Positions 21,303 through 37,711 of a stretch of DNA of 64,000 nt are shown piece after piece (positions within the stretch are counted from its first letter, which is position 1; each line of letters opens with the position of its first letter). This DNA comes from a virus. Taxonomy: Duplodnaviria; Heunggongvirae; Uroviricota; Caudoviricetes. Where the stretch lies: IMG/VR virus record IMGVR_UViG_2675903278_000002, one strand, 5' to 3'. The position numbers and the translations under genes were made by a program. The notes beneath the pieces are model-generated. The model was not told the origin of the DNA. It ran no database searches and worked only from the letters and a program-made list of their open reading frames with translations.

Positions 21303-22403
21303 TCACACTGCGCGGAATGCGATTTCGCCAGGTATTACTTCACCTTGCCAATACATTTGGGCAGCAACGCGATCTGCGAGGTCACGATAAATAGCCGTAA
21401 ATTCGCTATCTGGACGACTAATAACGGTTGGTGTTCCGTTATCCAGATCTTCACGAAGAGAGATATGAAGTGGCATTTGGCCTAACAACTGCGTGTTGTA
21501 TTTCTCGGCCAGTTTCTGTGCGCCACCGGTGCCAAAAATTGGCTCGTGATGACCGCAGTTACTGCAAATATGCACACTCATGTTTTCGACGATACCCAGT
21601 ACCGGCACTTCGACTTTTTCGAACATCACAATGCCTTTCTTCGCATCGATCAGCGCGATGTCTTGCGGCGTAGTTACCACAACCGCACCAGTTACAGGAA
21701 TGTTCTGCGCCAGCGTCAACTGAATATCACCAGTGCCCGGCGGCATATCGAGAACGAGATAGTCCAGATCAGGCCATAGAGTTTCCTGCAACATCTGCAT
21801 CAGCGCCTTGCTGGCCATCGGTCCACGCCACACCATTGCATTGTCGTCGGTGACCAGATAACCAATAGAGTTGGTTGCCAGGCCATGAGACATGATAGGT
21901 GCCATGTGAGTACCGTCCGGTGAGGTTGGACGTTGGTTTTCCGCGCCCAGCATGGTTGGAATTGATGGACCATAGATATCGGCATCCAAAATACCAACTT
22001 TCGCACCTTCAGCAGCCAACGCCAGTGCCAGATTTACCGCCGTGGAGGATTTACCTACGCCGCCCTTGCCTGAGCTGACGGCGATAATGTTCTTAACGCC
22101 ATTAATGCCTGGTTGGTTTTTGACGCGCTTAAGCGTGGCAATGTTGTACGACAGCTTCCAGTCAATAGCCTTTGCGCCAGTGATACGGAGCAGATCACCA
22201 CTACATTGCTCTTTCAGGTCTTCAAAAGGCTTATTCCACACGAAAGGCATGATTAGTTCGACATGCAGTGTGTCATCCATCAACGCAACATGGTGTAACG
22301 CTTTAAGCGTAGTCAGGTTGTGTTTCAGGGTTGGGTGCTGAAAATTAGCCAGCGTACCGGCTACCATTGCTCTCAGGGCATCCGGCGATTTGGACTCGCT
22401 CAT
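21303..22403 (-). CDS. mrp: Fe-S cluster carrier ATPase Mrp/ApbC (host-type)
   Basis: 366 aa. Nearly collinear and identical to E. coli Mrp as I recall it (AVSSGKGGVGKSS, CSNCGHHEPIFG). Confidence 0.95.
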   Translation of the reverse strand: MSESKSPDALRAMVAGTLANFQHPTLKHNLTTLKALHHVALMDDTLHVELIMPFVWNKPFEDLKEQCSGDLLRITGAKAIDWKLSYNIATLKRVKNQPGINGVKNIIAVSSGKGGVGKSSTAVNLALALAAEGAKVGILDADIYGPSIPTMLGAENQRPTSPDGTHMAPIMSHGLATNSIGYLVTDDNAMVWRGPMASKALMQMLQETLWPDLDYLVLDMPPGTGDIQLTLAQNIPVTGAVVVTTPQDIALIDAKKGIVMFEKVEVPVLGIVENMSVHICSNCGHHEPIFGTGGAQKLAEKYNTQLLGQMPLHISLREDLDNGTPTVISRPDSEFTAIYRDLADRVAAQMYWQGEVIPGEIAFRAV

Positions 22404-22560
22404 CCCGTCTCCTTTATTTTAATTTGCGCAATTGTCGCCTTGTAGTGTACTCCAGCTACGACATTTAATCATTTATGAGAAATGCTGTTATCACATGGCA
22501 GACATAAGGCCATTTTGTTACTATCAAGCCCCTTTTCACTACAAAGAAGTAATGCCTACT

Positions 22561-24594
22561 ATGACCCAAGTCGCGAAGAAAATTCTGGTGACGTGCGCGC
22601 TGCCGTACGCTAACGGCTCAATCCACCTCGGCCATATGCTGGAGCACATCCAGGCTGATGTCTGGGTTCGTTACCAGCGAATGCGCGGCCACGAGGTTAA
22701 TTTCATCTGTGCCGACGATGCCCACGGTACGCCGATCATGCTGAAAGCACAGCAGCTTGGTATCACACCGGAGCAGATGATTGGCGAAATGAGTCAGGAA
22801 CACCAGACTGATTTCGCAGGCTTTAACATCAGCTATGACAACTATCACTCGACGCACAGCGAAGAGAACCGTCAGTTGTCTGAGCTTATCTATACTCGCC
22901 TGAAAGAGAACGGTTTTATTAAAAACCGCACTATCTCTCAGTTGTACGACCCGGAAAAAGGCATGTTCCTGCCGGATCGTTTTGTAAAAGGCACCTGCCC
23001 GAAATGTAAAGCGCCAGATCAATACGGCGATAACTGTGAAGTCTGCGGCGCAACATATAGCCCGACTGAATTGATCGAGCCGAAATCGGTGGTTTCTGGC
23101 GCTACCCCGGTAATGCGTGATTCCGAACACTTCTTCTTTGATCTGCCTTCTTTCAGCGAAATGTTGCAGGCATGGACCCGCAGCGGCGCGTTGCAGGAGC
23201 AGGTGGCGAACAAAATGCAGGAATGGTTTGAATCCGGCCTGCAACAGTGGGATATCTCCCGAGATGCGCCTTACTTCGGTTTTGAAATTCCGAACGCGCC
23301 GGGCAAATATTTCTACGTCTGGCTGGACGCGCCGATTGGCTACATGGGTTCCTTCAAGAATCTGTGCGACAAGCGCGGCGATACCACCAGCTTCGATGAA
23401 TACTGGAAGAAAGACTCCACCGCCGAGCTGTACCACTTCATCGGTAAAGATATTGTTTACTTCCACAGCCTGTTCTGGCCTGCCATGCTGGAAGGCAGCA
23501 ACTTCCGCAAGCCGACCAACCTGTTTGTTCACGGCTATGTGACGGTGAACGGCGCGAAGATGTCCAAGTCTCGCGGCACCTTTATTAAAGCCAGCACCTG
23601 GCTGAATCATTTTGACGCCGACAGCCTGCGTTACTACTACACTGCGAAACTCTCTTCGCGCATTGATGATATCGATCTCAACCTGGAGGATTTCGTTCAG
23701 CGCGTGAATGCCGATATCGTGAACAAAGTGGTTAACCTGGCCTCCCGTAATGCAGGCTTTATCAACAAGCGTTTTGACGGCGTGCTGGCAAGCGAACTGG
23801 CTGACCCGCAACTGTACAAAACCTTTACTGATGCCGCTGAAGTGATTGGCGAAGCATGGGAAAGCCGCGAATTTGGTAAAGCTATCCGTGAAATCATGGC
23901 ATTGGCTGACCTGGCTAACCGCTATGTCGATGAACAGGCTCCGTGGGTGGTGGCGAAGCAGGAAGGACGCGATGCCGATCTGCAGGCGATTTGCTCTATG
24001 GGCATTAACCTGTTCCGCGTGCTGATGACGTACCTGAAGCCGGTACTGCCGAAACTGACTGAACGTGCAGAAGCATTCCTGAATACAGAACTGACCTGGG
24101 ATGGTATCCAGCAACCGCTGCTGGGCCATAAAGTAAATCCGTTCAAGGCACTGTATAACCGCATCGATATGAAGCAGGTTGAAGCACTGGTGGAAGCATC
24201 CAAAGAAGAAGTGAAAGCCACAGCCGCACCGGTAACTGGCCCACTGGCTGACGACCCGATTCAGGAAACTATCACCTTTGACGACTTCGCCAAAGTTGAC
24301 CTGCGCGTGGCGCTGATTGAAAACGCAGAGTTTGTAGAAGGTTCTGACAAACTGCTTCGCCTGACGCTGGATCTCGGTGGTGAAAAGCGTAATGTCTTCT
24401 CAGGCATCCGTTCCGCTTATCCAGATCCACAGGCACTGATTGGTCGTCACACCATTATGGTGGCTAACCTGGCACCACGTAAAATGCGCTTCGGTATCTC
24501 TGAAGGCATGGTGATGGCTGCTGGCCCCGGCGGGAAAGATATCTTCCTGTTAAGCCCGGATGCTGGTGCTAAACCTGGCCACCAGGTTAAGTAA
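22561..24594 (+). CDS. metG: Methionyl-tRNA synthetase (host-type, full length)
   Basis: 677 aa from ATG 22561 ([25 protein letters not shown]..., KMSKS). Only scattered substitutions relative to E. coli K-12 MetG as I recall it. The track ORF start at 22432 is upstream read-in. Confidence 0.97.
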
Positions 24595-26099: not shown

Positions 26100-26870
26100 A
26101 AATATCAATAGGTTATGGTTGTTTATACAAATAAGAAAACAACTAAATAACAGATCAACGAAACGTCAACGCTTTCACCCGATTTGGTCTAAAAAATTGA
26201 CGTTTTCACACATCACTTCTTATACCCGTAACTCTACGCAGCAGACATCGCCACAGCGTCCAATTTTCACCACAGACGACCCAACACACTACCAACAAAA
26301 ACACACGCTCAAAATCGCTCCCGTTGCGTTACACAACCATATAAACAACTTATTTTCAGGCATAACAAAACAACTAAATAACACACATGCCATTTCCAAA
26401 AACAACCAACCTCTTTATGGCAGGCTACCGAAAAGACCCACCTCTTCTCCCCAGGCTACCGGACAACCAACCTAACTTTCACAGGCAATCCGAAAACATT
26501 CATACGCGCGATACCCACGACACGCCATTACCCAAACAGCGAAGAAACACCAGAATCACTGAACCCCCAACGAAGCCTGTAACCGCAAGGCTTCTCTCAA
26601 TCCCAAAAGACACGAAACAGAACAATCACGGGAAACGCCATTACCCAACACACGAATAACTACAAAAGCCCTTCACGCACTCCAGACAAACAACTCAAAC
26701 ACAATAACGAAAGGAATCGCCCACCTGCCATTACTCCATACACGGAGAAGAACAATCACCAAAACGACGAGAACACCCCATAGAAGAACCACCGCAAAAC
26801 GAACGAAACCACATACACCGACAGAGAGAACAACACACCCAATTCACCAACAGAATTAGTCGCCGTATAG
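26100..26870 (+). other. A+C-skewed, G/T-poor non-coding tract
   Basis: By hand count, about 100 G in 780 nt, and 70-80% A+C in the lines I counted. Track ORFs here translate to low-complexity T/P/Q/N/H sequence. Confidence 0.6.
26421..26510 (+). repeat. Three tandem ~30-bp repeats (CAGGCTACCGnAnAAnCCnACCT...)
   Basis: Units start at 26421, 26452 and 26482. A related triplet lies at 30416-30500. Confidence 0.6.
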
Positions 26871-26981
26871 AACGTTCTGGAAGGAGTGAGTGTTAACGTC
26901 CATAGAGAGGTTGAGACAGATAAAACACGAATAAAACACAACATGTATAGCGAAGAAGCCAGGTATGTATAAGTGGGGAGA

Positions 26982-27007
26982 GAAGGAGGGGTGTCGCCTC
27001 CTTTTTC
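26982..27007 (+). terminator. Rho-independent terminator closing the A+C-rich tract
   Basis: AAGGAGG-ggtgtcg-CCTCCTT followed by TTT. Confidence 0.6.
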
Positions 27008-27069
27008 GTATTTATTCAACTCCTGATTTTACCCCCCGTAACACCCCTACGGTCAGCCTTCGGTCCATA

Positions 27070-27205
27070 CAGGGAAAAGGCTGCATCCCGCTACAGAAAC
27101 GGCTGGGTTGCCTTCGGGGAACGGCTGGAGGTTTTCAGGGAAACGGTCGAGTTGCCTGTGTGGATTTCGGGAAAAGGCTCGATGCCGGTTCAGGAACGGT
27201 GGCGT
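27070..27205 (+). repeat. Iteron-like array: six direct repeats (G/C)GGAAA(A/C)GGCT
   Basis: The GG anchor of each repeat falls at 27079, 27101, 27123, 27145, 27176 and 27198, giving spacings of 22, 22, 22, 31 and 22 bp. Confidence 0.7.
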
Positions 27206-27342
27206 ACCGGTATAGCGTGAGGGAGAGTTGCGGCTGTCCACCTGTAATGTGCGGGAAGAAGAGAGGCGCTCACGTGCAGGCGAACTTACTTACCGCTGGA
27301 TTCCCTCTGAATGCCCAGCTACAGCGTAATTGTGCCAGACAG

Positions 27343-27489
27343 TCAGCGGGTCACAATCGATTTCAGTAGGTTTTCGGGGAGAAGAAAATTCTGCCCACCA
27401 GCCCTGCGGCGCGCGTAGAGCAGAATATCGTAAATACTGGTTCCGTGTCGTTCCCGGATACTCACTACCCAGCCTGGCTTTCCCGACAT
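27343..27489 (-). CDS. Possible 48-aa basic protein
   Basis: Internal ATG has AAAGGA 4 nt upstream and gives MSGKPGWVVSIRERHGTSIYDILLYARRRAGGQ... It is divergent from the 27583 gene. The track start at 27546 lies inside Box A. Confidence 0.3.
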   Translation of the reverse strand: MSGKPGWVVSIRERHGTSIYDILLYARRRAGGQNFLLPENLLKSIVTR

Positions 27490-27536
27490 AAAATCCTTTT
27501 CCGCCTTTGTCTTATTGCGATAATAACACCAACAAG

Positions 27537-27551
27537 TAAACAACATGTTTA
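27537..27551. promoter_or_regulatory. Box A palindrome copy
   Basis: TAAACAACATGTTTA, preceded by GATAATAACACCAACAAG (a shared -10-like context). Confidence 0.6.
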
Positions 27552-27582
27552 GACGTTATATAAACGAAGTGAGGATGAAGAG

Positions 27583-27801
27583 ATGATTAAGATGCCTGTG
27601 ACGGTTGAGGTGTGGGGCGTGGATTCCCTGGCTGAGTGTCTGGATGCAGTGGGGCCGGAGTTGTACCGCAAGTTGTGGTCGTTCGTCCCGGCAGAAGGGG
27701 AATCGCCCAAAGGGAAGGATATCTGGCACCTGCTGAGTGAAGATGAAAAGCGGGAGCTGGTGGACGCGGTACACAGCGAGTTCCCGGGCGACGAAGATTA
27801 A
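27583..27801 (+). CDS. Small acidic hypothetical protein (cassette 1)
   Basis: 72 aa. GAGGA lies 7 nt upstream. Confidence 0.5.
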   Translation: MIKMPVTVEVWGVDSLAECLDAVGPELYRKLWSFVPAEGESPKGKDIWHLLSEDEKRELVDAVHSEFPGDED

Positions 27802-27806
27802 GAGTG

Positions 27807-27830
27807 AGGCCACCAGCACGGTGGCTTTTG
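27807..27830 (+). terminator. Rho-independent terminator
   Basis: GCCACC-agcac-GGTGGC followed by TTTT. Confidence 0.7.
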
Positions 27831-27912
27831 TCGCTATTAACCTCCGGGCAGCGCAGCACCGTAACGATATACTTTGTGGCCGTTTTCTTACTGGTATTGT
27901 TTACGCAATTCA

Positions 27913-27927
27913 GAAAACAACATGTTT
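27913..27927. promoter_or_regulatory. Box A palindrome copy
   Basis: GAAAACAACATGTTT, 12 nt upstream of ATG 27940. The ~65-bp upstream context is duplicated at 28352-28411. Confidence 0.6.
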
Positions 27928-27939
27928 AAGGATTGCGTT

Positions 27940-28269
27940 ATGTTTGCAAATATCGACATCAACCAAATCAAGAAAATGACTCAAAAAGAGTTTGACCAGT
28001 TTTATGAGTTAGAAGGTTGGTCTTCCACTCTGATCAATTCGCGGTGGGTGCTTGAGCTGATGACTCGTGATGACGCACCTGCTTTGATGATTTGCGACAT
28101 GGGTGAAGATGCTGACTTTATGGATATGAGCGAATTTTGTGTGGACACATACAACCGCAGCCAGAAGTACTACTTCACATGCGATAGCGAAAATGACGTG
28201 ATTTCTAAGGTCTATCTTCACCTCGTCCAGCATTGGGACGTTCAGGAGTTTCTTGAAGTATTCGAGTAA
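27940..28269 (+). CDS. Small acidic hypothetical protein (cassette 2)
   Basis: ATG 27940 has AAGGA 7 nt upstream. 109 aa. Confidence 0.5.
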   Translation: MFANIDINQIKKMTQKEFDQFYELEGWSSTLINSRWVLELMTRDDAPALMICDMGEDADFMDMSEFCVDTYNRSQKYYFTCDSENDVISKVYLHLVQHWDVQEFLEVFE

Positions 28270-28278
28270 CCCCAACCA

Positions 28279-28304
28279 AAGCCAGCATTGCTGGCTTAAT
28301 TTCT
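28279..28304 (+). terminator. Hairpin terminator (weak U-tract)
   Basis: AAGCCAGC-att-GCTGGCTT followed by aatttctc. Confidence 0.5.
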
Positions 28305-28396
28305 CTATAGCCGCAGGGAAGAACCTGCATATCGCTCATGCACCTGATCAATATGCTTTGTAGCCGTTTTCTTACTGGTATTATTTACGCCATTGA

Positions 28397-28411
28397 GAAA
28401 ACAAGTTGTTT
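28397..28411. promoter_or_regulatory. Box A palindrome copy
   Basis: GAAAACAAGTTGTTT, 11 nt upstream of ATG 28423. Confidence 0.6.
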
Positions 28412-28422
28412 ACGGAGTTGTG

Positions 28423-28734
28423 ATGAAAAAATCATTGGTTCTTGGTCTGGACAAAGACCAGAAGAGAAAAGAGAAGCCTGCGCTGGTTGCTCAATTAACT
28501 TTGCTGGACATCGTTGCCAATGGAACCTCTATTCGTCTGTTCCGTGAAACAGCGGTGTCTTTCGATAAAAACACCTTTACTCGTTATGTAATGAATGTTC
28601 GTCGCCAGCGTGGAAAAGGCTGGGTGGCATTTCAAAGAATGTGGCCGGAACATCAGCTCGAACTGGCTTTGATGGAAGTTAACCGCGTGGCCCAGCAAGA
28701 GATTCAGAGAGCATCAGTGATGGCAATAGCCTGA
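28423..28734 (+). CDS. Small basic hypothetical protein (cassette 3)
   Basis: ATG 28423 has GGAG 5 nt upstream. 103 aa. Confidence 0.5.
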   Translation: MKKSLVLGLDKDQKRKEKPALVAQLTLLDIVANGTSIRLFRETAVSFDKNTFTRYVMNVRRQRGKGWVAFQRMWPEHQLELALMEVNRVAQQEIQRASVMAIA

Positions 28735-28768
28735 TAATGTGCAAGTGGTAATTAGTCGACAGTACGAC

Positions 28769-28797
28769 AGCCCCGCCATCCTTACGGGGCTTTTTTG
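28769..28797 (+). terminator. Rho-independent terminator
   Basis: GCCCCG...CGGGGC followed by TTTTTT. Confidence 0.85.
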
Positions 28798-28801
28798 TAT
28801 T

Positions 28802-28817
28802 GTAAGTACATACTTAT
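28802..28817. promoter_or_regulatory. Box B palindrome copy
   Basis: GTAAGTACATACTTAT. This is the only cassette in the array that carries Box B instead of Box A. Confidence 0.55.
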
Positions 28818-28860
28818 GATCATAGAATATAAAAATAACCAAAACACTACGGAGAGTGAA

Positions 28861-29256
28861 ATGACCGTTAAACGCGAAAAACTGACAGTTGATGTTTACT
28901 ATGCCTCTGAAACCGCCGAAGGTAAGAATGTGGCAAAAATCACCGTTGTTACGTACAACACCGAAACTGGTGCCGAAGTCCAGGCCAGTACGATCGTGCG
29001 TAAAGGTGATGCCTCCGACGGCGAGTACGCGACTCAATACCAGTCCATTCTCGATGCAACTGACCCGCTGCTGCTGAAAATCGAGAACTACTTCCGCCAG
29101 GTTGATGAAGAGGTGTTTGAAACCATGATGAATATGGTTAACACCGTATTCGCCTCCAACCTGAATACCAACACTACCTGGATTGGTCAGTACGGCCTGC
29201 GCATTACCTCTGGCATTCCTGCCGACACCTTAATCCCTGAAAGCGTATTCGCTTAA
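28861..29256 (+). CDS. Hypothetical protein (cassette 4)
   Basis: ATG 28861 has GGAG 6 nt upstream. 131 aa. Confidence 0.5.
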   Translation: MTVKREKLTVDVYYASETAEGKNVAKITVVTYNTETGAEVQASTIVRKGDASDGEYATQYQSILDATDPLLLKIENYFRQVDEEVFETMMNMVNTVFASNLNTNTTWIGQYGLRITSGIPADTLIPESVFA

Positions 29257-29264
29257 TCCTCTTT

Positions 29265-29292
29265 AAATGGCGCGTAAACCGCGCCATTTTCT
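29265..29292 (+). terminator. Rho-independent terminator
   Basis: AATGGCGCG-taaac-CGCGCCATT followed by TTTC. Confidence 0.8.
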
Positions 29293-29300
29293 TATGCCCG

Positions 29301-29315
29301 ATAACAATTTGTTTT
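29301..29315. promoter_or_regulatory. Box A palindrome copy
   Basis: ATAACAATTTGTTTT. Confidence 0.55.
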
Positions 29316-29373
29316 CTGCCTTATCTGATTTGTGAAAATGATTTCACTGAAGCAACTTAATAAGGAAACCATC

Positions 29374-29748
29374 ATGGGACTTGATATCTATATCGAGACA
29401 CAGCCTAAAAACGATCTGAATAACGAGGCATCCAGAAAGCAGGTTGCTTACTTCCGTAAGTTCAATGCGCTCGTTGGGTGGATGGAGCGCAACGTAGGTG
29501 AAGTCGAAAATTGTGAGCTTTTAGAATTAACGATGAATGACATTTGTTTTCTGAAGGCTCATTTGATGCACATAAACGAAAGTAATTGCGAAGAGTACTT
29601 GCCTACCCGGGAAGGTTTTTTCTTCGGCAGTCAGGAGTACGATGAAGGTTACTGGCATGATGTGGGGCAGTTGAAAGAGCTTGTGGAAGATCTGATTAAG
29701 AACCACGACTTTCACAATAACAGACTGACCTTCTGCGCCTGGTGGTAA
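29374..29748 (+). CDS. Hypothetical protein (cassette 5)
   Basis: ATG 29374 has AAGGA 7 nt upstream. Begins MGLDIYIETQ... 124 aa. Confidence 0.5.
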   Translation: MGLDIYIETQPKNDLNNEASRKQVAYFRKFNALVGWMERNVGEVENCELLELTMNDICFLKAHLMHINESNCEEYLPTREGFFFGSQEYDEGYWHDVGQLKELVEDLIKNHDFHNNRLTFCAWW

Positions 29749-29750
29749 AT

Positions 29751-29894
29751 ATGGGCGATTTCAAGAAACGCCTGAAGGAAAGAGCCGAGATGGTCAGAAA
29801 GCAAAACGCCTCTTCTGTCATCAGATACGCAAGGCAGTTTAGTCGCAACAACAAATCAGTTGAGGAAAAGATCCTTAGCGTAATCGGTCGATAA
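29751..29894 (+). CDS. 47-aa basic microprotein (not in ORF track)
   Basis: ATG lies 2 nt after the upstream stop. I translated it by hand as MGDFKKRLKERAEMVRKQNASSVIRYARQFSRNNKSVEEKILSVIGR. Confidence 0.4.
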   Translation: MGDFKKRLKERAEMVRKQNASSVIRYARQFSRNNKSVEEKILSVIGR

Positions 29895-29901
29895 TTATTA
29901 A

Positions 29902-29921
29902 GGCCACCAGCATTGGTGGTC
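29902..29921 (+). terminator. Conserved GGCCACCA/TGGTGG hairpin (no U-tract)
   Basis: The context ATTAAGGCCACCAgcatTGGTGGtCTTAAATGAC is nearly identical to that at 30367-30400. Confidence 0.45.
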
Positions 29922-30049
29922 TTAAATGACTTTTAATAACCGAAGGTTAGTTTGAAACCTGGCTATCAACTTCCAGAACCTTTCTTGTGTATTCAGCCTG
30001 TATTAACTTCTTTTATGCCTTATCTACACTGCGATAATTACACCAACAA

Positions 30050-30064
30050 GAAAACAACATGTTT
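30050..30064. promoter_or_regulatory. Box A palindrome copy
   Basis: GAAAACAACATGTTT, preceded by GATAATTACACCAACAAG. Confidence 0.6.
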
Positions 30065-30083
30065 ACGCAGTGAGGATATGCTC

Positions 30084-30365
30084 ATGACTGATTTCACCAT
30101 TACCCCTAAAGCACAAAATGTATTTCTTGAATCATGGCTGGACTTGCCGGAAACAGAACAGCAAGAAATGGATCATGTGGATTATGACGAGCAGGTAAGC
30201 ACGCGATTCTTCCACTTTGAGGGATGCGTTTACGACATTGCTGACTTCATGCGAGATGACCGCTTCCCTGAATGGCACGCCAGTTATCCACTAAACGCCT
30301 TTGCCATGCTGATGATCCGTGTGGATGATTCAGGGGATACCATCGACATCGGTCTGCTCCACTAA
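30084..30365 (+). CDS. Small acidic hypothetical protein (cassette 6)
   Basis: ATG 30084 has GAGGA 7 nt upstream. 93 aa. Confidence 0.5.
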   Translation: MTDFTITPKAQNVFLESWLDLPETEQQEMDHVDYDEQVSTRFFHFEGCVYDIADFMRDDRFPEWHASYPLNAFAMLMIRVDDSGDTIDIGLLH

Positions 30366-30370
30366 AGATT

Positions 30371-30394
30371 AAGGCCACCAATGCTGGTGGCCTT
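30371..30394 (+). terminator. Conserved hairpin (perfect 10-bp stem, no U-tract)
   Basis: AAGGCCACCA-atgc-TGGTGGCCTT. Confidence 0.45.
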
Positions 30395-30415
30395 AAATGA
30401 CCATCCTGTTTCCCG

Positions 30416-30500
30416 CAGGCTAAAAACACCAACCTCTTACCTCCAGGCAACCGACAAACCCACCTGTTCCCGTCCGGCTACCGCAACTTTCCACTTTGAC
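30416..30500 (+). repeat. Three tandem ~29-bp repeats related to those at 26421-26510
   Basis: CAGGCTAAAAACACCAACCT.., CAGGCAACCGACAAACCCACCT.., CCGGCTACCGCAACTTTCCAC. Units start at 30416, 30444 and 30474. Confidence 0.55.
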
Positions 30501-30534
30501 GCCTTATTCGTACAACGATAATTAACACCAACAA

Positions 30535-30549
30535 GAAAACAATTTGTTA
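30535..30549. promoter_or_regulatory. Box A palindrome copy
   Basis: GAAAACAATTTGTTA, preceded by TTGACG-n15-GATAAT (sigma70-like). Confidence 0.6.
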
Positions 30550-30569
30550 TTTACGATAAGGAATTAATC

Positions 30570-31052
30570 ATGAATTTTATCGCTACTGTAAACGCACCCG
30601 CACATGGCAATATCGCTGTAACGTTCTCTGACATTGAAAAACGAGTACTTGGTGCATGGCGCGACAATGAGACGGTAGAACTGTCAGCACAAGAAAAATG
30701 CATTATTGCACGCGACATCATTGGCAATCGTCGTTACTCGCGGGTATTTGAGAAAGCGTATGTGGTAAATTCTGGGTTCGGAACGTTCGTCTTTCCGGTG
30801 CGCTCCGGGCGATTCTGCCAGTCCAAGCTGATTGAGTTCGCTACGCAGATTTCTGTCTGGATTAAAACTCAATCGTCGTTCAAATTTTCCGACGATGAAG
30901 CAGTATCGCAGGGGATGCGGATCGCCAACAATGCGATTAAATGCAAAAACATTACGTATACCGCTGGCGTTGATACATGGAAACTGTTTTGCGCTAACTT
31001 TATGCTGAATGTATACGCAAGCAACCGCATCCACATCCTTGATGGCGTGTAA
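30570..31052 (+). CDS. Hypothetical protein (cassette 7)
   Basis: 160 aa. SD AAGGA upstream. Confidence 0.5.
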   Translation: MNFIATVNAPAHGNIAVTFSDIEKRVLGAWRDNETVELSAQEKCIIARDIIGNRRYSRVFEKAYVVNSGFGTFVFPVRSGRFCQSKLIEFATQISVWIKTQSSFKFSDDEAVSQGMRIANNAIKCKNITYTAGVDTWKLFCANFMLNVYASNRIHILDGV

Positions 31053-31058
31053 CTGAGA

Positions 31059-31084
31059 AGAGGGCCAGAAACGGCCCTTTCTCT
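31059..31084 (+). terminator. Rho-independent terminator
   Basis: AGGGCC-agaaac-GGCCCT followed by TTCTC. The loop contains the iteron core CAGAAACGGC. Confidence 0.6.
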
Positions 31085-31099
31085 ATAGCCACCAGCTGC

Positions 31100-31180
31100 C
31101 GCAGGGAAATTTTCAGAAACGGCGAGGAACGTATTCATAAGCCGACGGGAAACGGCCAGGATTTTTTCGGGAAACGGCTG
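31100..31180 (+). repeat. Second iteron-like set (GGGAAACGGC family)
   Basis: GCAGGGAAAT, CAGAAACGGCG, CGGGAAACGGCC and CGGGAAACGGCTG. The last two are 22 bp apart. Confidence 0.55.
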
Positions 31181-31279
31181 CATTCGCCTTTATGTAGAAA
31201 AAAACATCGGGAAGCTGGTGGAATCCAACCAGCGGTTGTCGGACAGGCGAGCGGGGAAAATTATGATGACTTTCGTCGC

Positions 31280-31590
31280 CTGAGACATCCAGATTTCTTT
31301 CGTAGCATAATCACATACGTGATTAAGTGGTGTGATTATGTGAAAAATCACGCGCACATAATACGCGAGCGGATACGGAACAAAACAAAATGCCGATCCG
31401 CGCCGACAAATAAACGCGGATCACATAGCAAGAATAAAAGCCAATGATTAGCCATACGTTATAGCGCAATATAACGCATTTTAAGCGCGTTAATGTGCTA
31501 AGTAATGGGTATGTACTGGTAAGGATATAAAAGCGCGTCTATGGCGTTATTTTGGCGCTTATTTTTATGTTGTTGGAGTGAGTTAAAGAC
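31280..31590. other. ORF-free AT-rich region with nested inverted repeats
   Basis: CATAATCACA (31306) pairs with TGTGATTATG (31331), enclosing AATCAC-atac-GTGATT. GATCCGCG (31395) pairs with CGCGGATC (31415). Confidence 0.45.
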
Positions 31591-31593
31591 AAT

Positions 31594-31664
31594 AAAAAAC
31601 GCGCCATCATTGGCGCGCTATGGTGGGAGTATTGGAAACGAAAAAAGCGCCCATAGTGGGCGCT
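31594..31664 (-). terminator. Tandem rho-independent terminators for the minus-strand module
   Basis: Read on the minus strand: AGCGCCCA-cta-TGGGCGCT+TTTTTT, then CGCGCCA-atga-TGGCGCG+TTTTTT. Confidence 0.8.
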
Positions 31665-31669
31665 CGATT

Positions 31670-33419: not shown

Positions 33420-33944
33420 TCAAAAAGGCAAAATTCGTTCAACCCAATCGAACAAAACAACTATTTTTCTACCGTTCTCGACACGTAGTGTAACCTGACA
33501 AGCATCTGCGCCTGCTGACACCCCCTCAATTTCACGGCCATCCGCCATGTACACCCTTATAGATTTGTTTGCTTTGTAGGCTTGGTTGCAAATTGCAAAA
33601 AAATCGCGGCGTGATGGCCGATTATCGACATAATCAGGGTGAACTGTTAGTCGACCTTTGAAATCGTGAGCGATACTGTCAACCACACCTGATTCAATTG
33701 TACTAATGCGTTCAAGTGGGAGCCTTATACGATTTTCTTTGTCAAAAGGGGCTGGGCAAAGGTCAACTTTGTTACGAGATGGCATGAGGCCATAAACGTA
33801 CATGCAAAACGCCTGGCCATCTTCGAGAGTGACCCTTACAGGAATTTGTTCTCTGCGCCAGAACATCAGTAGTTTTTCAACGTTAGTGTAATCTCGCGGC
33901 CAGAGTTCAGCTTGGATACCGTAGGTAATATCTTTGGTTGTCAT
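33420..33944 (-). CDS. Hypothetical protein (two beta-rich halves, possibly Sm-like)
   Basis: Start uncertain (33944 or 34022). Segments VRVTLEDGQAFCMYVYG and IRVYMADGREIEGV...VTLRVENGRKIVVLFDWVERI. Confidence 0.45.
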   Translation of the reverse strand: MTTKDITYGIQAELWPRDYTNVEKLLMFWRREQIPVRVTLEDGQAFCMYVYGLMPSRNKVDLCPAPFDKENRIRLPLERISTIESGVVDSIAHDFKGRLTVHPDYVDNRPSRRDFFAICNQAYKANKSIRVYMADGREIEGVSAGADACQVTLRVENGRKIVVLFDWVERILPF

Positions 33945-36325: not shown

Positions 36326-36345
36326 ATAAGTAAGTGATTACTTAG
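36326..36345. promoter_or_regulatory. Box B palindrome copy in the divergent helicase/ParB-like intergenic region
   Basis: ATAAGTAAgtgaTTACTTAG. Confidence 0.55.
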
Positions 36346-36362
36346 TGGATTGTAGCAATAAA

Positions 36363-37043
36363 ATGGATGTAAAAATCACGATTTTGCAGGTTGATGTTGC
36401 CAACCTTCGCCCGAATACCTGGAACACCAATTCGGTTGGTGCGCAGAATTTTGAAAAACTGAAAGGTTCTATCGAAAAATTGGGCTTTTTTAAGCCAATT
36501 TTGGCTCGTGAACTTGAAGATGGATTTTTTGAAATCCTCGGCGGTGAACATCGCTGGCGTGCTGCTATTGAGCAAGGAATTTCAACGGTTCCGGTGCTTT
36601 CTGTGGGCAAAATTAGCGATGTCGTAGCTAAACAGATGTCACTGGTGGACAACGAGCGATACGGTGAAGACGACCAAATCGCATTGCAACGCTTCATTGA
36701 AGAAATTCAGTCAGAACTTGACTATCAACTGTCTGAAATCGCCCCGTATGACGACGAAATCTCGATGGTTTTAGCAAAAGAGGCGGCAATCGACCTTGAA
36801 GCACTGGAGGCGTTGTCTCGTGGTAGTGATGAGCCTGTCGATACCGACAAACGAGAGAAAACCGAACGTGTGGGTGCGGAACATCAGACCATGCGCTTCA
36901 AAGTAACTTTCGATGCGTCAGATCGTGTTGCAGAAACCATAAAAAACATCATCAAAGAGCAGGCTATTAACACCGGTAATGAAATGGAGAACGCTGGTGA
37001 GGCTCTGGTGTGGCTGGTCGACTACTACAAGGAGCGTATGTAA
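36363..37043 (+). CDS. ParB/Srx-fold (ParB N-terminal domain) protein 1
   Basis: PILARELEDGFFEILGGEHRWRAA carries the GxxHR ParB box. The start is either ATG 36363 or GTG 36345. Confidence 0.7.
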   Translation: MDVKITILQVDVANLRPNTWNTNSVGAQNFEKLKGSIEKLGFFKPILARELEDGFFEILGGEHRWRAAIEQGISTVPVLSVGKISDVVAKQMSLVDNERYGEDDQIALQRFIEEIQSELDYQLSEIAPYDDEISMVLAKEAAIDLEALEALSRGSDEPVDTDKREKTERVGAEHQTMRFKVTFDASDRVAETIKNIIKEQAINTGNEMENAGEALVWLVDYYKERM

Positions 37044-37711
37044 TGACCAAAAAGTTTGAAATCGTATATCGCGACCCGGCAGATCTTATTCCCTATGAGA
37101 TGAATGCCAAAAAGCATGATGAACAGCAGATCAGAGATTTGGCCGCAGCCATTAAAAAGCGCGGATTTGACCAGCCAATTACGGTCGATAAGAACGACGT
37201 AATTATTACTGGCCACGGCCGCCGTGAGGCTGCAATTTTTGCTGGACTTGAGCGCGTACCGGTTATTGTTCGTGATGATCTGAGTGATGACGAGGTTCGT
37301 GCGAAGCGCCTTGAAGATAACCGACTTGCCAGCATTGATTACGATGCAATTAAGCTACAGAAAGAGCTTGAGTCGCTTGTTCTGGACGATATTGAGGTTT
37401 TCGGCTTTGAAGAGCGTGAGTTGAATGTTCTCGTTGGCAGTATGACAGAAGAAATGGACACCGACTCGCTAGTTATCGATCTTGGCGAAGAAACTAAACG
37501 ACAGAAGGATGAACACACCGAGATCAGTCGTGAAGTTGCAGCGGAAGAAGTACGTGTTGTCGACGTATTGGGCTTTAAAACGCTCCCTGCTGGCTCTGCC
37601 ATTGTTGTTGGTGATTTGCTTGCCCATATGGAAGAAATGACGGGAGAAAGCGGGGTAGACGCATTTGTGGCATATGCGGAGAAGATCTCTTCCGGGGAGA
37701 TGGCTGCATGA
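37043..37711 (+). CDS. ParB-like nuclease-domain protein 2
   Basis: TAATG coupling with AAGGAG upstream. Motifs QPITVDKNDVIITGHGRREAA and VPVIV. Confidence 0.7.
   Translation: MTKKFEIVYRDPADLIPYEMNAKKHDEQQIRDLAAAIKKRGFDQPITVDKNDVIITGHGRREAAIFAGLERVPVIVRDDLSDDEVRAKRLEDNRLASIDYDAIKLQKELESLVLDDIEVFGFEERELNVLVGSMTEEMDTDSLVIDLGEETKRQKDEHTEISREVAAEEVRVVDVLGFKTLPAGSAIVVGDLLAHMEEMTGESGVDAFVAYAEKISSGEMAA

Follow-up and report, generated by a model that had tools for sequence, protein, structure and literature searches.

Paired orphan iteron-like arrays conserved in SSU5/pHCM2-type phage-plasmids

Phased direct-repeat sets around rep are known from P1 (incC/incA) and F (ori2/incC). In phage P4, the initiator-binding repeats form two clusters, ori and crr, both of which are needed in cis; these repeats are octamers in mixed orientation and are bound by the alpha primase-helicase. 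Partition sites can also be split or dispersed. In pB171, two repeat clusters (parC1 and parC2) flank genes, while in the phage-plasmid N15 sopC-like sites lie among the phage genes and also affect transcription. Here we describe two repeat arrays, 4 kb apart, in a stretch of 64,000 nt of viral DNA from the Caudoviricetes (IMG/VR record IMGVR_UViG_2675903278_000002; this whole stretch is hereafter called the window). The feature is real, conserved and uncharacterised: a pair of orphan iteron arrays with no recognisable initiator gene in cis.

The locus has something in common with each of these systems. As with the iterons that flank rep in P1 and F, and with the RepFIB iterons of the element itself, two arrays phased at 21–22 bp bracket genes and vary in copy number. 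Unlike them, however, the arrays are unrelated in sequence to the iterons of the resident RepA and there is no recognisable rep gene between them. As in P4, two clusters of one repeat lie several kb apart on a phage-plasmid-like element, but nothing ties the helicase or the primase of this element to the arrays. The clusters flanking genes recall pB171, and the position among phage genes recalls N15. In contrast to these split or dispersed centromeres, the arrays do not lie beside the par genes, and the par promoter carries a different motif.

The 7 kb around the arrays were 95–96% identical to Escherichia phages Cyrano (= plasmid pLF82), PhiR41_1 and CMS-2020a, while Klebsiella and Salmonella SSU5-type elements gave more distant matches to the same region. 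Because of these matches, the window is assigned to an E. coli phage-plasmid of the SSU5/pHCM2/Cyrano type. This agrees with the phage-plasmid lifestyle suggested in a first-pass annotation of the window. PhiR41_1 served as complete relative for genome-wide comparison. The window corresponds to about 4.6–68.6 kb of that record, and the homologous arrays are located at 31.6 and 35.1 kb. These elements are typed IncFIB.

In array 1, the consensus RGRAAMGGY was matched on the + strand at 27073, 27095, 27117, 27139, 27170 and 27192. The six direct repeats first reported, with GG anchors at 27079, 27101, 27123, 27145, 27176 and 27198 and spacings of 22, 22, 22, 31 and 22 bp, were all recovered. Further + strand matches were detected at 31067, within the loop of a terminator, and at 31115, 31148 and 31170, giving spacings of 48, 33 and 22 bp when counted from the loop copy. 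These confirm the second, looser set placed near 31100–31180, the final two copies of which are 22 bp apart, as well as the copy in the terminator loop. The whole window contains 14 matches (13 on the + strand), 10 of which fall within the two clusters and four elsewhere. The isolated copies claimed at 26631 and 28311 exist, at about 26629 and about 28316. Another copy, in a cassette gene (Table 1), does not belong to the arrays and probably owes its conservation to the protein that it helps to encode. Calculated from the background rate outside the arrays, the Poisson probability of six or more copies in 130 bp is about 6e-18. In 200 shuffles, four successive copies at exact 22-bp intervals were never obtained, nor even two copies in 22-bp register.

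Alignment of 55 distinct units from eight relatives revealed GG at positions -2/-1, the GRAAMGG core, C at +7, a purine at +9 (54 of the 55 units) and G at +10, with a further CC at +14/+15. Information is unbroken from -2 to +10 around GRAAMGG (about 13 bp, approximately GGGAAACGGCTGG). The extended unit is longer than the 11 bp, (C/G)GGAAA(A/C)GGCT, originally proposed. Iteron origins generally display at least three direct repeats of about 17–22 bp in helical phase; array 1 displays six units with 22-bp spacing. The repeats are phased and unidirectional, and the description as iteron-like holds.

A query of 386 bp over array 1 matched 714 PLSDB plasmids (from Klebsiella, Escherichia, Enterobacter, Salmonella, Citrobacter and Cronobacter) and 12 phage records. 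Ten relatives from five host genera (Escherichia, Salmonella, Enterobacter, Cronobacter and Klebsiella) were compared in detail. In all ten, both arrays were present on the same strand and in the same place, array 1 consistently after the conserved hairpin and block given in Table 1, array 2 consistently after the terminator of the gene for a 160-aa protein and always directly 3' of that gene. The phase of array 1 (22-22-22-31-22) was identical in E. coli-type, SSU5, pHCM2-like, Enterobacter and Cronobacter elements, and the pattern of array 2, (45–48)-33/34-22, was kept among the relatives. A 190-nt alignment of the E. coli-type and SSU5-type clades displayed one terminal gap column only, due to a single-base deletion in one sequence; the motif columns were invariant and the spacers divergent. 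Copy number in array 1 shifted by whole 22-bp units over a range of 3–7, with three in one Cronobacter-type element, four in others, five in PhiR41_1 and six to seven elsewhere. Past the full units, GGGACGG was found 28 bp after unit 6 in SSU5 and pHCM2-like elements, and 37–38 bp after the last full unit in Klebsiella elements. In the complete PhiR41_1 genome, motif clusters were found solely at the two homologous array sites, with no third. The conserved position and phase, the divergent spacers and the turnover by whole units are the outcome expected of purifying selection on phased binding sites. Conservation of the repeats in relatives, on which the first proposal had been made to depend, is thus borne out for both arrays.

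Table 1. Coordinates of the two arrays and of associated features in the window.
Feature	Position	Strand	Basis
Array 1: six units of 22 bp, head-to-tail, units 4 and 5 being separated by 9 extra bp	27066..27206	+	Motif matches and relatives
GRAAMGG cores of array 1	27074, 27096, 27118, 27140, 27171, 27193	+	
Degenerate trailing copies in a purine-rich stretch: GAGGGAGAG (27219-27227) and GCGGGAAGAAG (27251-27261)	27219..27261	+	
Array 2: degenerate copy CAGGGAAAT (31102-31110) and full copies at 31115, 31148 and 31170	31101..31183	+	
Isolated motif copy in conserved cassette gene 28423-28734	28612..28620	+	
Intrinsic-terminator-like hairpin ending the A/C-rich stretch, directly 5' of array 1	26980..27007	+	
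Conserved block from terminator to array 1: ATTCAAS-N12/13-CCCCCGTAAC ... CCTACGGTC	27008..27065	+	
Bracketed block of eight small genes	27583..31052	+	
160-aa gene (phrog_1641), last of the block, invariably adjoining array 2	30570-31052	+	
Terminator of the 160-aa gene, loop formed by motif copy CCAGAAACGGCC (31066-31077)	31055..31085	+	
Inverted Chi pair around array 2: CCACCAGC (31089-31096, minus) and GCTGGTGG (31214-31221, plus)	31089..31221		
AAACAA-NN-TTGTT sites	2320, 12541, 13270, 24679, 24730, 27538, 27915, 28399, 29303, 30052, 30537, 39679		

The advice to look for rep and par elsewhere on the replicon proved sound, as both were found in PhiR41_1 beyond the window: parA at 73.2 kb and repA at 104.4–105.5 kb, with a DnaB-like helicase/primase module at 76–78.7 kb. 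RepA (Rep_3, PF01051) is encoded at 104369–105463. Copies of ACCGCTGACAGCATAC, at least 11, occur both before and after its gene and are spaced by 21 bp in the densest runs. The same genome thus displays the classical iteron layout for its own RepA, which speaks for a distinct binding protein at the arrays. The ACCGCTGACAGCATAC repeats are unrelated in sequence to the array unit, and no GRAAMGG cluster was detected near repA in the complete PhiR41_1. Iterons next to repA have also been described for the related IncpKPHS1 plasmids (PMC6735626). The parA gene is located about 40 kb from the arrays. Its promoter in PhiR41_1 contains neither a copy of the array motif nor a GRAAMGG cluster, and the region upstream of it carries the palindrome AAGAAAACAAGTTGTTTC (AAACAAGTTGTTT), which is also present in the cassette promoters. 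While the term iteron-like stands, the two more specific ideas derived from it, plasmid Rep iterons and a type Ib/II centromere beside its par genes, fail on these grounds.

We consider with moderate confidence that the arrays are phased, iteron-class sites in duplex DNA to which a sequence-specific protein other than RepA binds. The informative 13 bp or so and the CC at +14/15 are as expected of a protein footprint across two major grooves. Each putative site of about 18 bp (GGGAAACGGC-N6-GCC) would recur every 22 bp, about two helical turns, and the spacings of 31–34 bp would correspond to about three turns. Because the site recurs every two turns or so, bound protomers would be aligned on one face of the helix. 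They may polymerise head-to-tail into a cooperative nucleoprotein filament, and the two equally oriented arrays would most probably pair, through looping or handcuffing, and so enclose the repressor-controlled block of early genes. Provided that the arrays are protein-binding DNA, a replication function independent of RepA (auxiliary or second origin, enhancer similar to P4 crr, or initiator sink) is a substantial possibility. Somewhat less probable is that they bound transcription of the early block or serve it as a regulator platform; a partition site is unlikely, and any other role more unlikely still.

The closest look-alikes came from viral contigs, which were scanned for GRAAMGG cores recurring three times at 22 bp; about 25 repeat families were inspected. 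The scan returned SSU5-type elements, many unrelated tandem repeats, and arrays reading GCCGAATGGAAACGGC(N6); only the lambdoid O-gene subset was informative. The GCCGAATGGAAACGGC(N6) arrays are located inside open reading frames (ORFs) of 290–370 aa and are followed by AT-rich ACAGATC repeats. In contig L019, the gene after the array-bearing ORF encodes lambda replication protein P (PF06992, E = 2.6e-63). The array-bearing ORFs match the annotated DNA replication protein O of Providencia, Shigella and E. coli lambdoid phages, while the matching ORF in Klebsiella phage ST405-OXA48phi1.2 (MK416007) is annotated as hypothetical only; the latter phage has seven units in 22/45-bp register inside its O gene. 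This type of O is rare at the DNA level in complete E. coli genomes (2–6 of 5426). The GGAAACGGC arrays of lambdoid phages are classical lambda-type origin iterons.

The unit of these lambdoid iterons is made of GGAAACGGC (9), N6 and GCCGAAT (7), giving 22 in total, and the phage-plasmid unit follows the same plan, e.g. AGAAACGGC TGGGTT GCCTTCG. In both cases (for the lambdoid side ST405-OXA48phi1.2 and the IMG/VR contigs L019, L025, L071 and L111, with 4–7 units) the repeats are arranged head-to-tail with a 22-bp period, the core (T/G)GGAAACGGC is followed by N6 and GCC in a GGC-N6-GCC layout, and a short dyad (GCC/GGC or CCG/CGG) surrounds an A-rich asymmetric centre. The lambdoid iterons, however, lie inside the initiator gene, followed by the ACAGATC-repeat unwinding region and by lambda P or a helicase. 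In contrast, the phage-plasmid arrays are intergenic and duplicated 4 kb apart, their N6 is G/T-rich instead of A-rich, and neither an adjacent AT-rich element nor an O-like protein was detected on the element. Outside of the searched core, the two position matrices resembled each other more closely than column-permuted controls did (z = 2.4, p about 0.009, without correction for the approximately 25 families). This likeness is suggestive, not decisive.

Several observations weigh against binding sites for a DNA-binding protein. The match to O-type iterons came from a search that imposed core and period, and is only modestly significant. No relative of the O N-terminal domain was found in the window or in the complete PhiR41_1 (tblastn E > 0.4, the best 'hit' being the translation of array 1; hmmsearch E > 0.4; hhalign at most 5.7% probability), although a non-homologous initiator could still serve. 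No binding protein for the arrays was identified. The 160-aa protein encoded beside array 2 is basic (isoelectric point 9.2) and occurs only in SSU5-type phage-plasmids; its structural model is confident (predicted local distance difference test, pLDDT, 86.5; predicted template modelling score 0.73) and gave no significant match to solved structures and no DNA-binding fold. With regard to an origin, no DnaA box was found in 25.9–31.3 kb except one at 31339, and there is no AT-rich unwinding element beside array 1, the flanks of which have 55–60% GC. The AT-richest 40-bp stretch is a cassette promoter at about 27520. As a candidate lytic origin, a near-perfect palindrome of 55 bp, rich in AT (CCTGCTTCCGTATATAT...ATATATACAGAAGCAGG), is preferable to the arrays. 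It is located outside the window at 75115–75169 of PhiR41_1 (L004 25115-25169), just upstream of a 246-aa gene, the DnaB-like helicase and the primase.

The remaining points against protein-bound duplex DNA are those that favour an RNA element, that is a + strand transcript with GGRAAMGG motifs between or within short GC stems, bound by a FljA homologue or by host CsrA or Hfq. Such a transcript would serve as a sponge, or regulate the early transcripts as a module at their 3' ends. The strand bias of the motif (13 of 14 copies) is co-directional with the flanking genes, both arrays begin at or just past + strand terminators, and RNAalifold with nine sequences gave 98.9% of cells paired, with five compensatory pairs. 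In addition, a gene of the FljA family (PF03614, repressor of phase-1 flagellin; 33423–33944, minus strand) lies 2.3 kb to the right of the arrays and is syntenic in nearly every relative examined. The AlphaFold model of its product (pLDDT 85) contains two tandem Sm/Hfq folds, and the top Foldseek hits were all Hfq. This gene is kept even in elements of non-flagellate Klebsiella, which together with the Hfq-like model suggests that the target is an RNA of the element itself. One CsrB repeat reads TTTCAGGGAAAGGC, nearly identical to one unit, and sponge RNAs of the CsrB/RsmZ type also repeat GGA-containing motifs at about 10–30 nt. Nevertheless, an RNA element is judged unlikely. The minimum free energy of array 1 was no better than that of shuffles (z of -0.04 and +0.18 for the two strands), and the value for array 2 (z = -1.8) was driven by the terminator. 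The longest helix (helix 1) is formed between two invariant segments and is not maintained in the Klebsiella clade, which keeps the array. A single split between two clades accounts for four of the five compensatory pairs. Covariation contributes only a small term (-2.8 kcal/mol), and it was read from the very sequences used to build the structure. Unlike the sponge RNAs, the arrays have no stable hairpins (folding z about 0), a strictly fixed period and one unit without GGA: unit 2 lacks it in most clades, the conserved feature being AAMGGC. To our knowledge, RNA sites of this sort are not known to keep a 22-nt period to the single nucleotide. Rfam gave no match to the arrays even at E ≤ 10. 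In the transcriptome of Cyrano lysogens, the only condition covered, the ORF over array 1 was near the local background (PMC9928086, S1 table), and the arrays are not abundant there as sponge RNAs would be. A CsrA sponge was rejected, as GGA is not the conserved feature, hairpins are missing and no transcript was seen in lysogens. A link to FljA through the 5' untranslated region of E. coli fliC, a known FljA target, was likewise discarded: the resemblance is at chance level, the array 2 10-mer AGCCGACGGG being no better than at least nine other leader 10-mers in the window. That array 1 is protein-coding has next to no credibility. An ORF of 134 aa with an ATG start (26965–27369, CYRAN_104 in Cyrano) does cover it and is annotated in two phage records, but it starts inside the terminator hairpin, annotators disagree on its length (270 nt vs 405 nt) and no call was made there by the Prokaryotic Genome Annotation Pipeline (PGAP) in the RefSeq plasmids examined. 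Moreover, unit indels of 22/23 bp and 44 bp among relatives break the frame, and the 22-bp period is not a multiple of three.

Among the readings that assign the arrays to a particular DNA-binding protein, a partition complex is regarded as slightly less probable than the RNA element. The arrays would represent a type Ib centromere of parC/parH type for ParA (223 aa) and its 119-aa partner, with two clusters far from the par genes. Two-cluster direct repeats are a known layout (R1 parC, pB171 parC1/parC2, pBtoxis tubC), and no obvious repeat array lies beside parA in PhiR41_1. Such centromeres, however, adjoin a parA/parM operon and double as its operator, whereas here parA is far away and the AAACAA-NN-TTGTT sequence of its promoter is the likelier dispersed par operator or centromere, as in N15. 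Direct repeats are present, but with a period of 22 bp, and type Ib/II centromeres are usually built of shorter units. The 366-aa P-loop ATPase encoded nearby is of the Mrp/NBP35 type (PF10609). Less probable is a decoy, in which the arrays are orphan lambda-O-type iterons that titrate the O-type initiator of lambdoid phages and block their replication, or that recruit this foreign initiator, upon induction of the other prophage, to replicate the phage-plasmid. About five plasmid copies with some ten sites each would titrate the unstable O initiator of co-infecting or co-resident lambdoid phages with GGAAACGGC iterons, and cloned ori-lambda iterons were shown experimentally to titrate O and to block lambdoid replication (PMC3349717, PMC4488673). 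Should the arrays prove to be initiator decoys against lambdoid phages, they would represent a novel form of conflict among mobile elements. Less credible again is a role as iterons of the resident RepA (Rep_3/RepFIB-type) or as incA-like copy-control sites for it. Array form and 22-bp phasing are typical of Rep iterons and fit the IncFIB typing, but the genuine iterons are those found at repA.

Both arrays are situated in convergent zones, in which a + strand terminator faces the 3' end of a small minus-strand ORF (array 1) or the terminators of a leftward operon (array 2). The block that separates the terminator from array 1 is the most conserved piece of the intergenic region, positions 9–95 of the query displaying 80–85% identity even in Klebsiella. 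Neither strand of this block gave a convincing sigma-32-like or sigma-70 promoter, and a tentative one on the minus strand was not kept in the SSU5 type. The first-pass annotation had also pointed to a 48-aa basic protein beside array 1. The ORF exists (27343–27489, minus strand, isoelectric point 10.9), but it received no PGAP call in the relatives examined and SSU5 has a different gene there; since the family as a whole does not keep it, a partnership with the arrays is unlikely.

None of the eight proteins of the bracketed block had a Pfam match above threshold, and their genes are mostly low in the Cyrano lysogen transcriptome (PMC9928086, S1 table). The palindrome AAACAA-NN-TTGTT(T) has 12 copies in the window, where 0.26 would be expected. 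Six of these lie at promoters within the block or at its margin, and the same palindrome is present upstream of PhiR41_1 parA (L004 23098-23118). The C1 operators of P1 and the dispersed centromeres of N15 are comparable, and the palindrome probably serves a global repressor or the partition adaptor as operator. The Chi pair around array 2 was found in nearly every clade compared, with one-base variants of the left-hand site in SSU5 and Cronobacter. The window contains 22 Chi octamers (GCTGGTGG) in both orientations against 1.5 expected; seven are in the 3.8-kb cassette block (27395–31221), and two octamers are within terminator stems (29904 and 30383).

To the left of array 1, about 770 nt (26200–26980) are extremely A/C-rich and G-poor on the + strand, with GC skew down to -0.57 and AT skew up to +0.65. 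This stretch has a sigma-70-like promoter (TTGACG-N18-TATACC, 26197–26232), and its 3' end is at the 26980–27007 terminator. It is packed with repeats, GCCATTACCCAA occurring three to five times, and is annotated as an ORF in phage records, not by PGAP. In Cyrano lysogens it was at the detection floor of RNA sequencing (PMC9928086, S1 table). This stretch could be a long unstructured non-coding RNA, perhaps an Hfq or Rho sink, or an element acting at the DNA level. Two sets of three phased repeats of 30–31 bp (ACCnACCTCTT-N7-CAGGCTACCG) were observed at 26399–26495 and 30394–30487; they are also kept in SSU5 and Klebsiella elements, and the second set is just 5' of the promoter of the 160-aa gene. 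The 1.9 kb from 26153 to 28032, which include the A/C-rich stretch and array 1, are free of GATC, the window average being one per about 230 bp.

To the right of array 2, bidirectional terminator hairpins are clustered at 31535–31665, between the array and the leftward operon. A sub-threshold Rfam match to Hrs1 in this region (28 bits vs a gathering score of 56) is most likely a terminator artefact. About 5 kb to the right of array 2, two tandem proteins with a ParB-N domain (232 and 233 aa) are encoded at 36345–37711 (+), and the ORF 3' of this pair is annotated as an ABC-type ATPase in relatives. At 21303–24594, the gene of the Mrp/NBP35-type P-loop ATPase (PF10609, annotated as MinD/ParA-like) is divergent from a full-length methionyl-tRNA synthetase gene; this ATPase is expressed in Cyrano lysogens (PMC9928086).

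Other types of site were considered for the arrays. Since pac and cos sites are usually located in or beside terS, and the arrays are 9–13 kb from that gene, such a site was judged unlikely. A LexA box (CTG-N10-CAG) was present at one junction only, and sites for IHF and DnaA were likewise not supported. A C-rich Rho-utilisation site on the minus strand would leave the conservation of a specific 13-bp motif unexplained.

Phage-plasmids of the SSU5/pHCM2 type are widespread in clinical Enterobacteriaceae, the array region alone being present in 714 PLSDB plasmids, and phage-plasmids of this kind carry resistance genes according to published surveys. The cis-acting biology of these elements is essentially unmapped beyond RepA and ParA, and the arrays offer a precise and small target for experimental work. 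As the conserved array pair is independent of the plasmid replicon, it points to a second DNA-protein machine on these elements, which may be a lytic or auxiliary origin, a partition site or an early-gene boundary complex.

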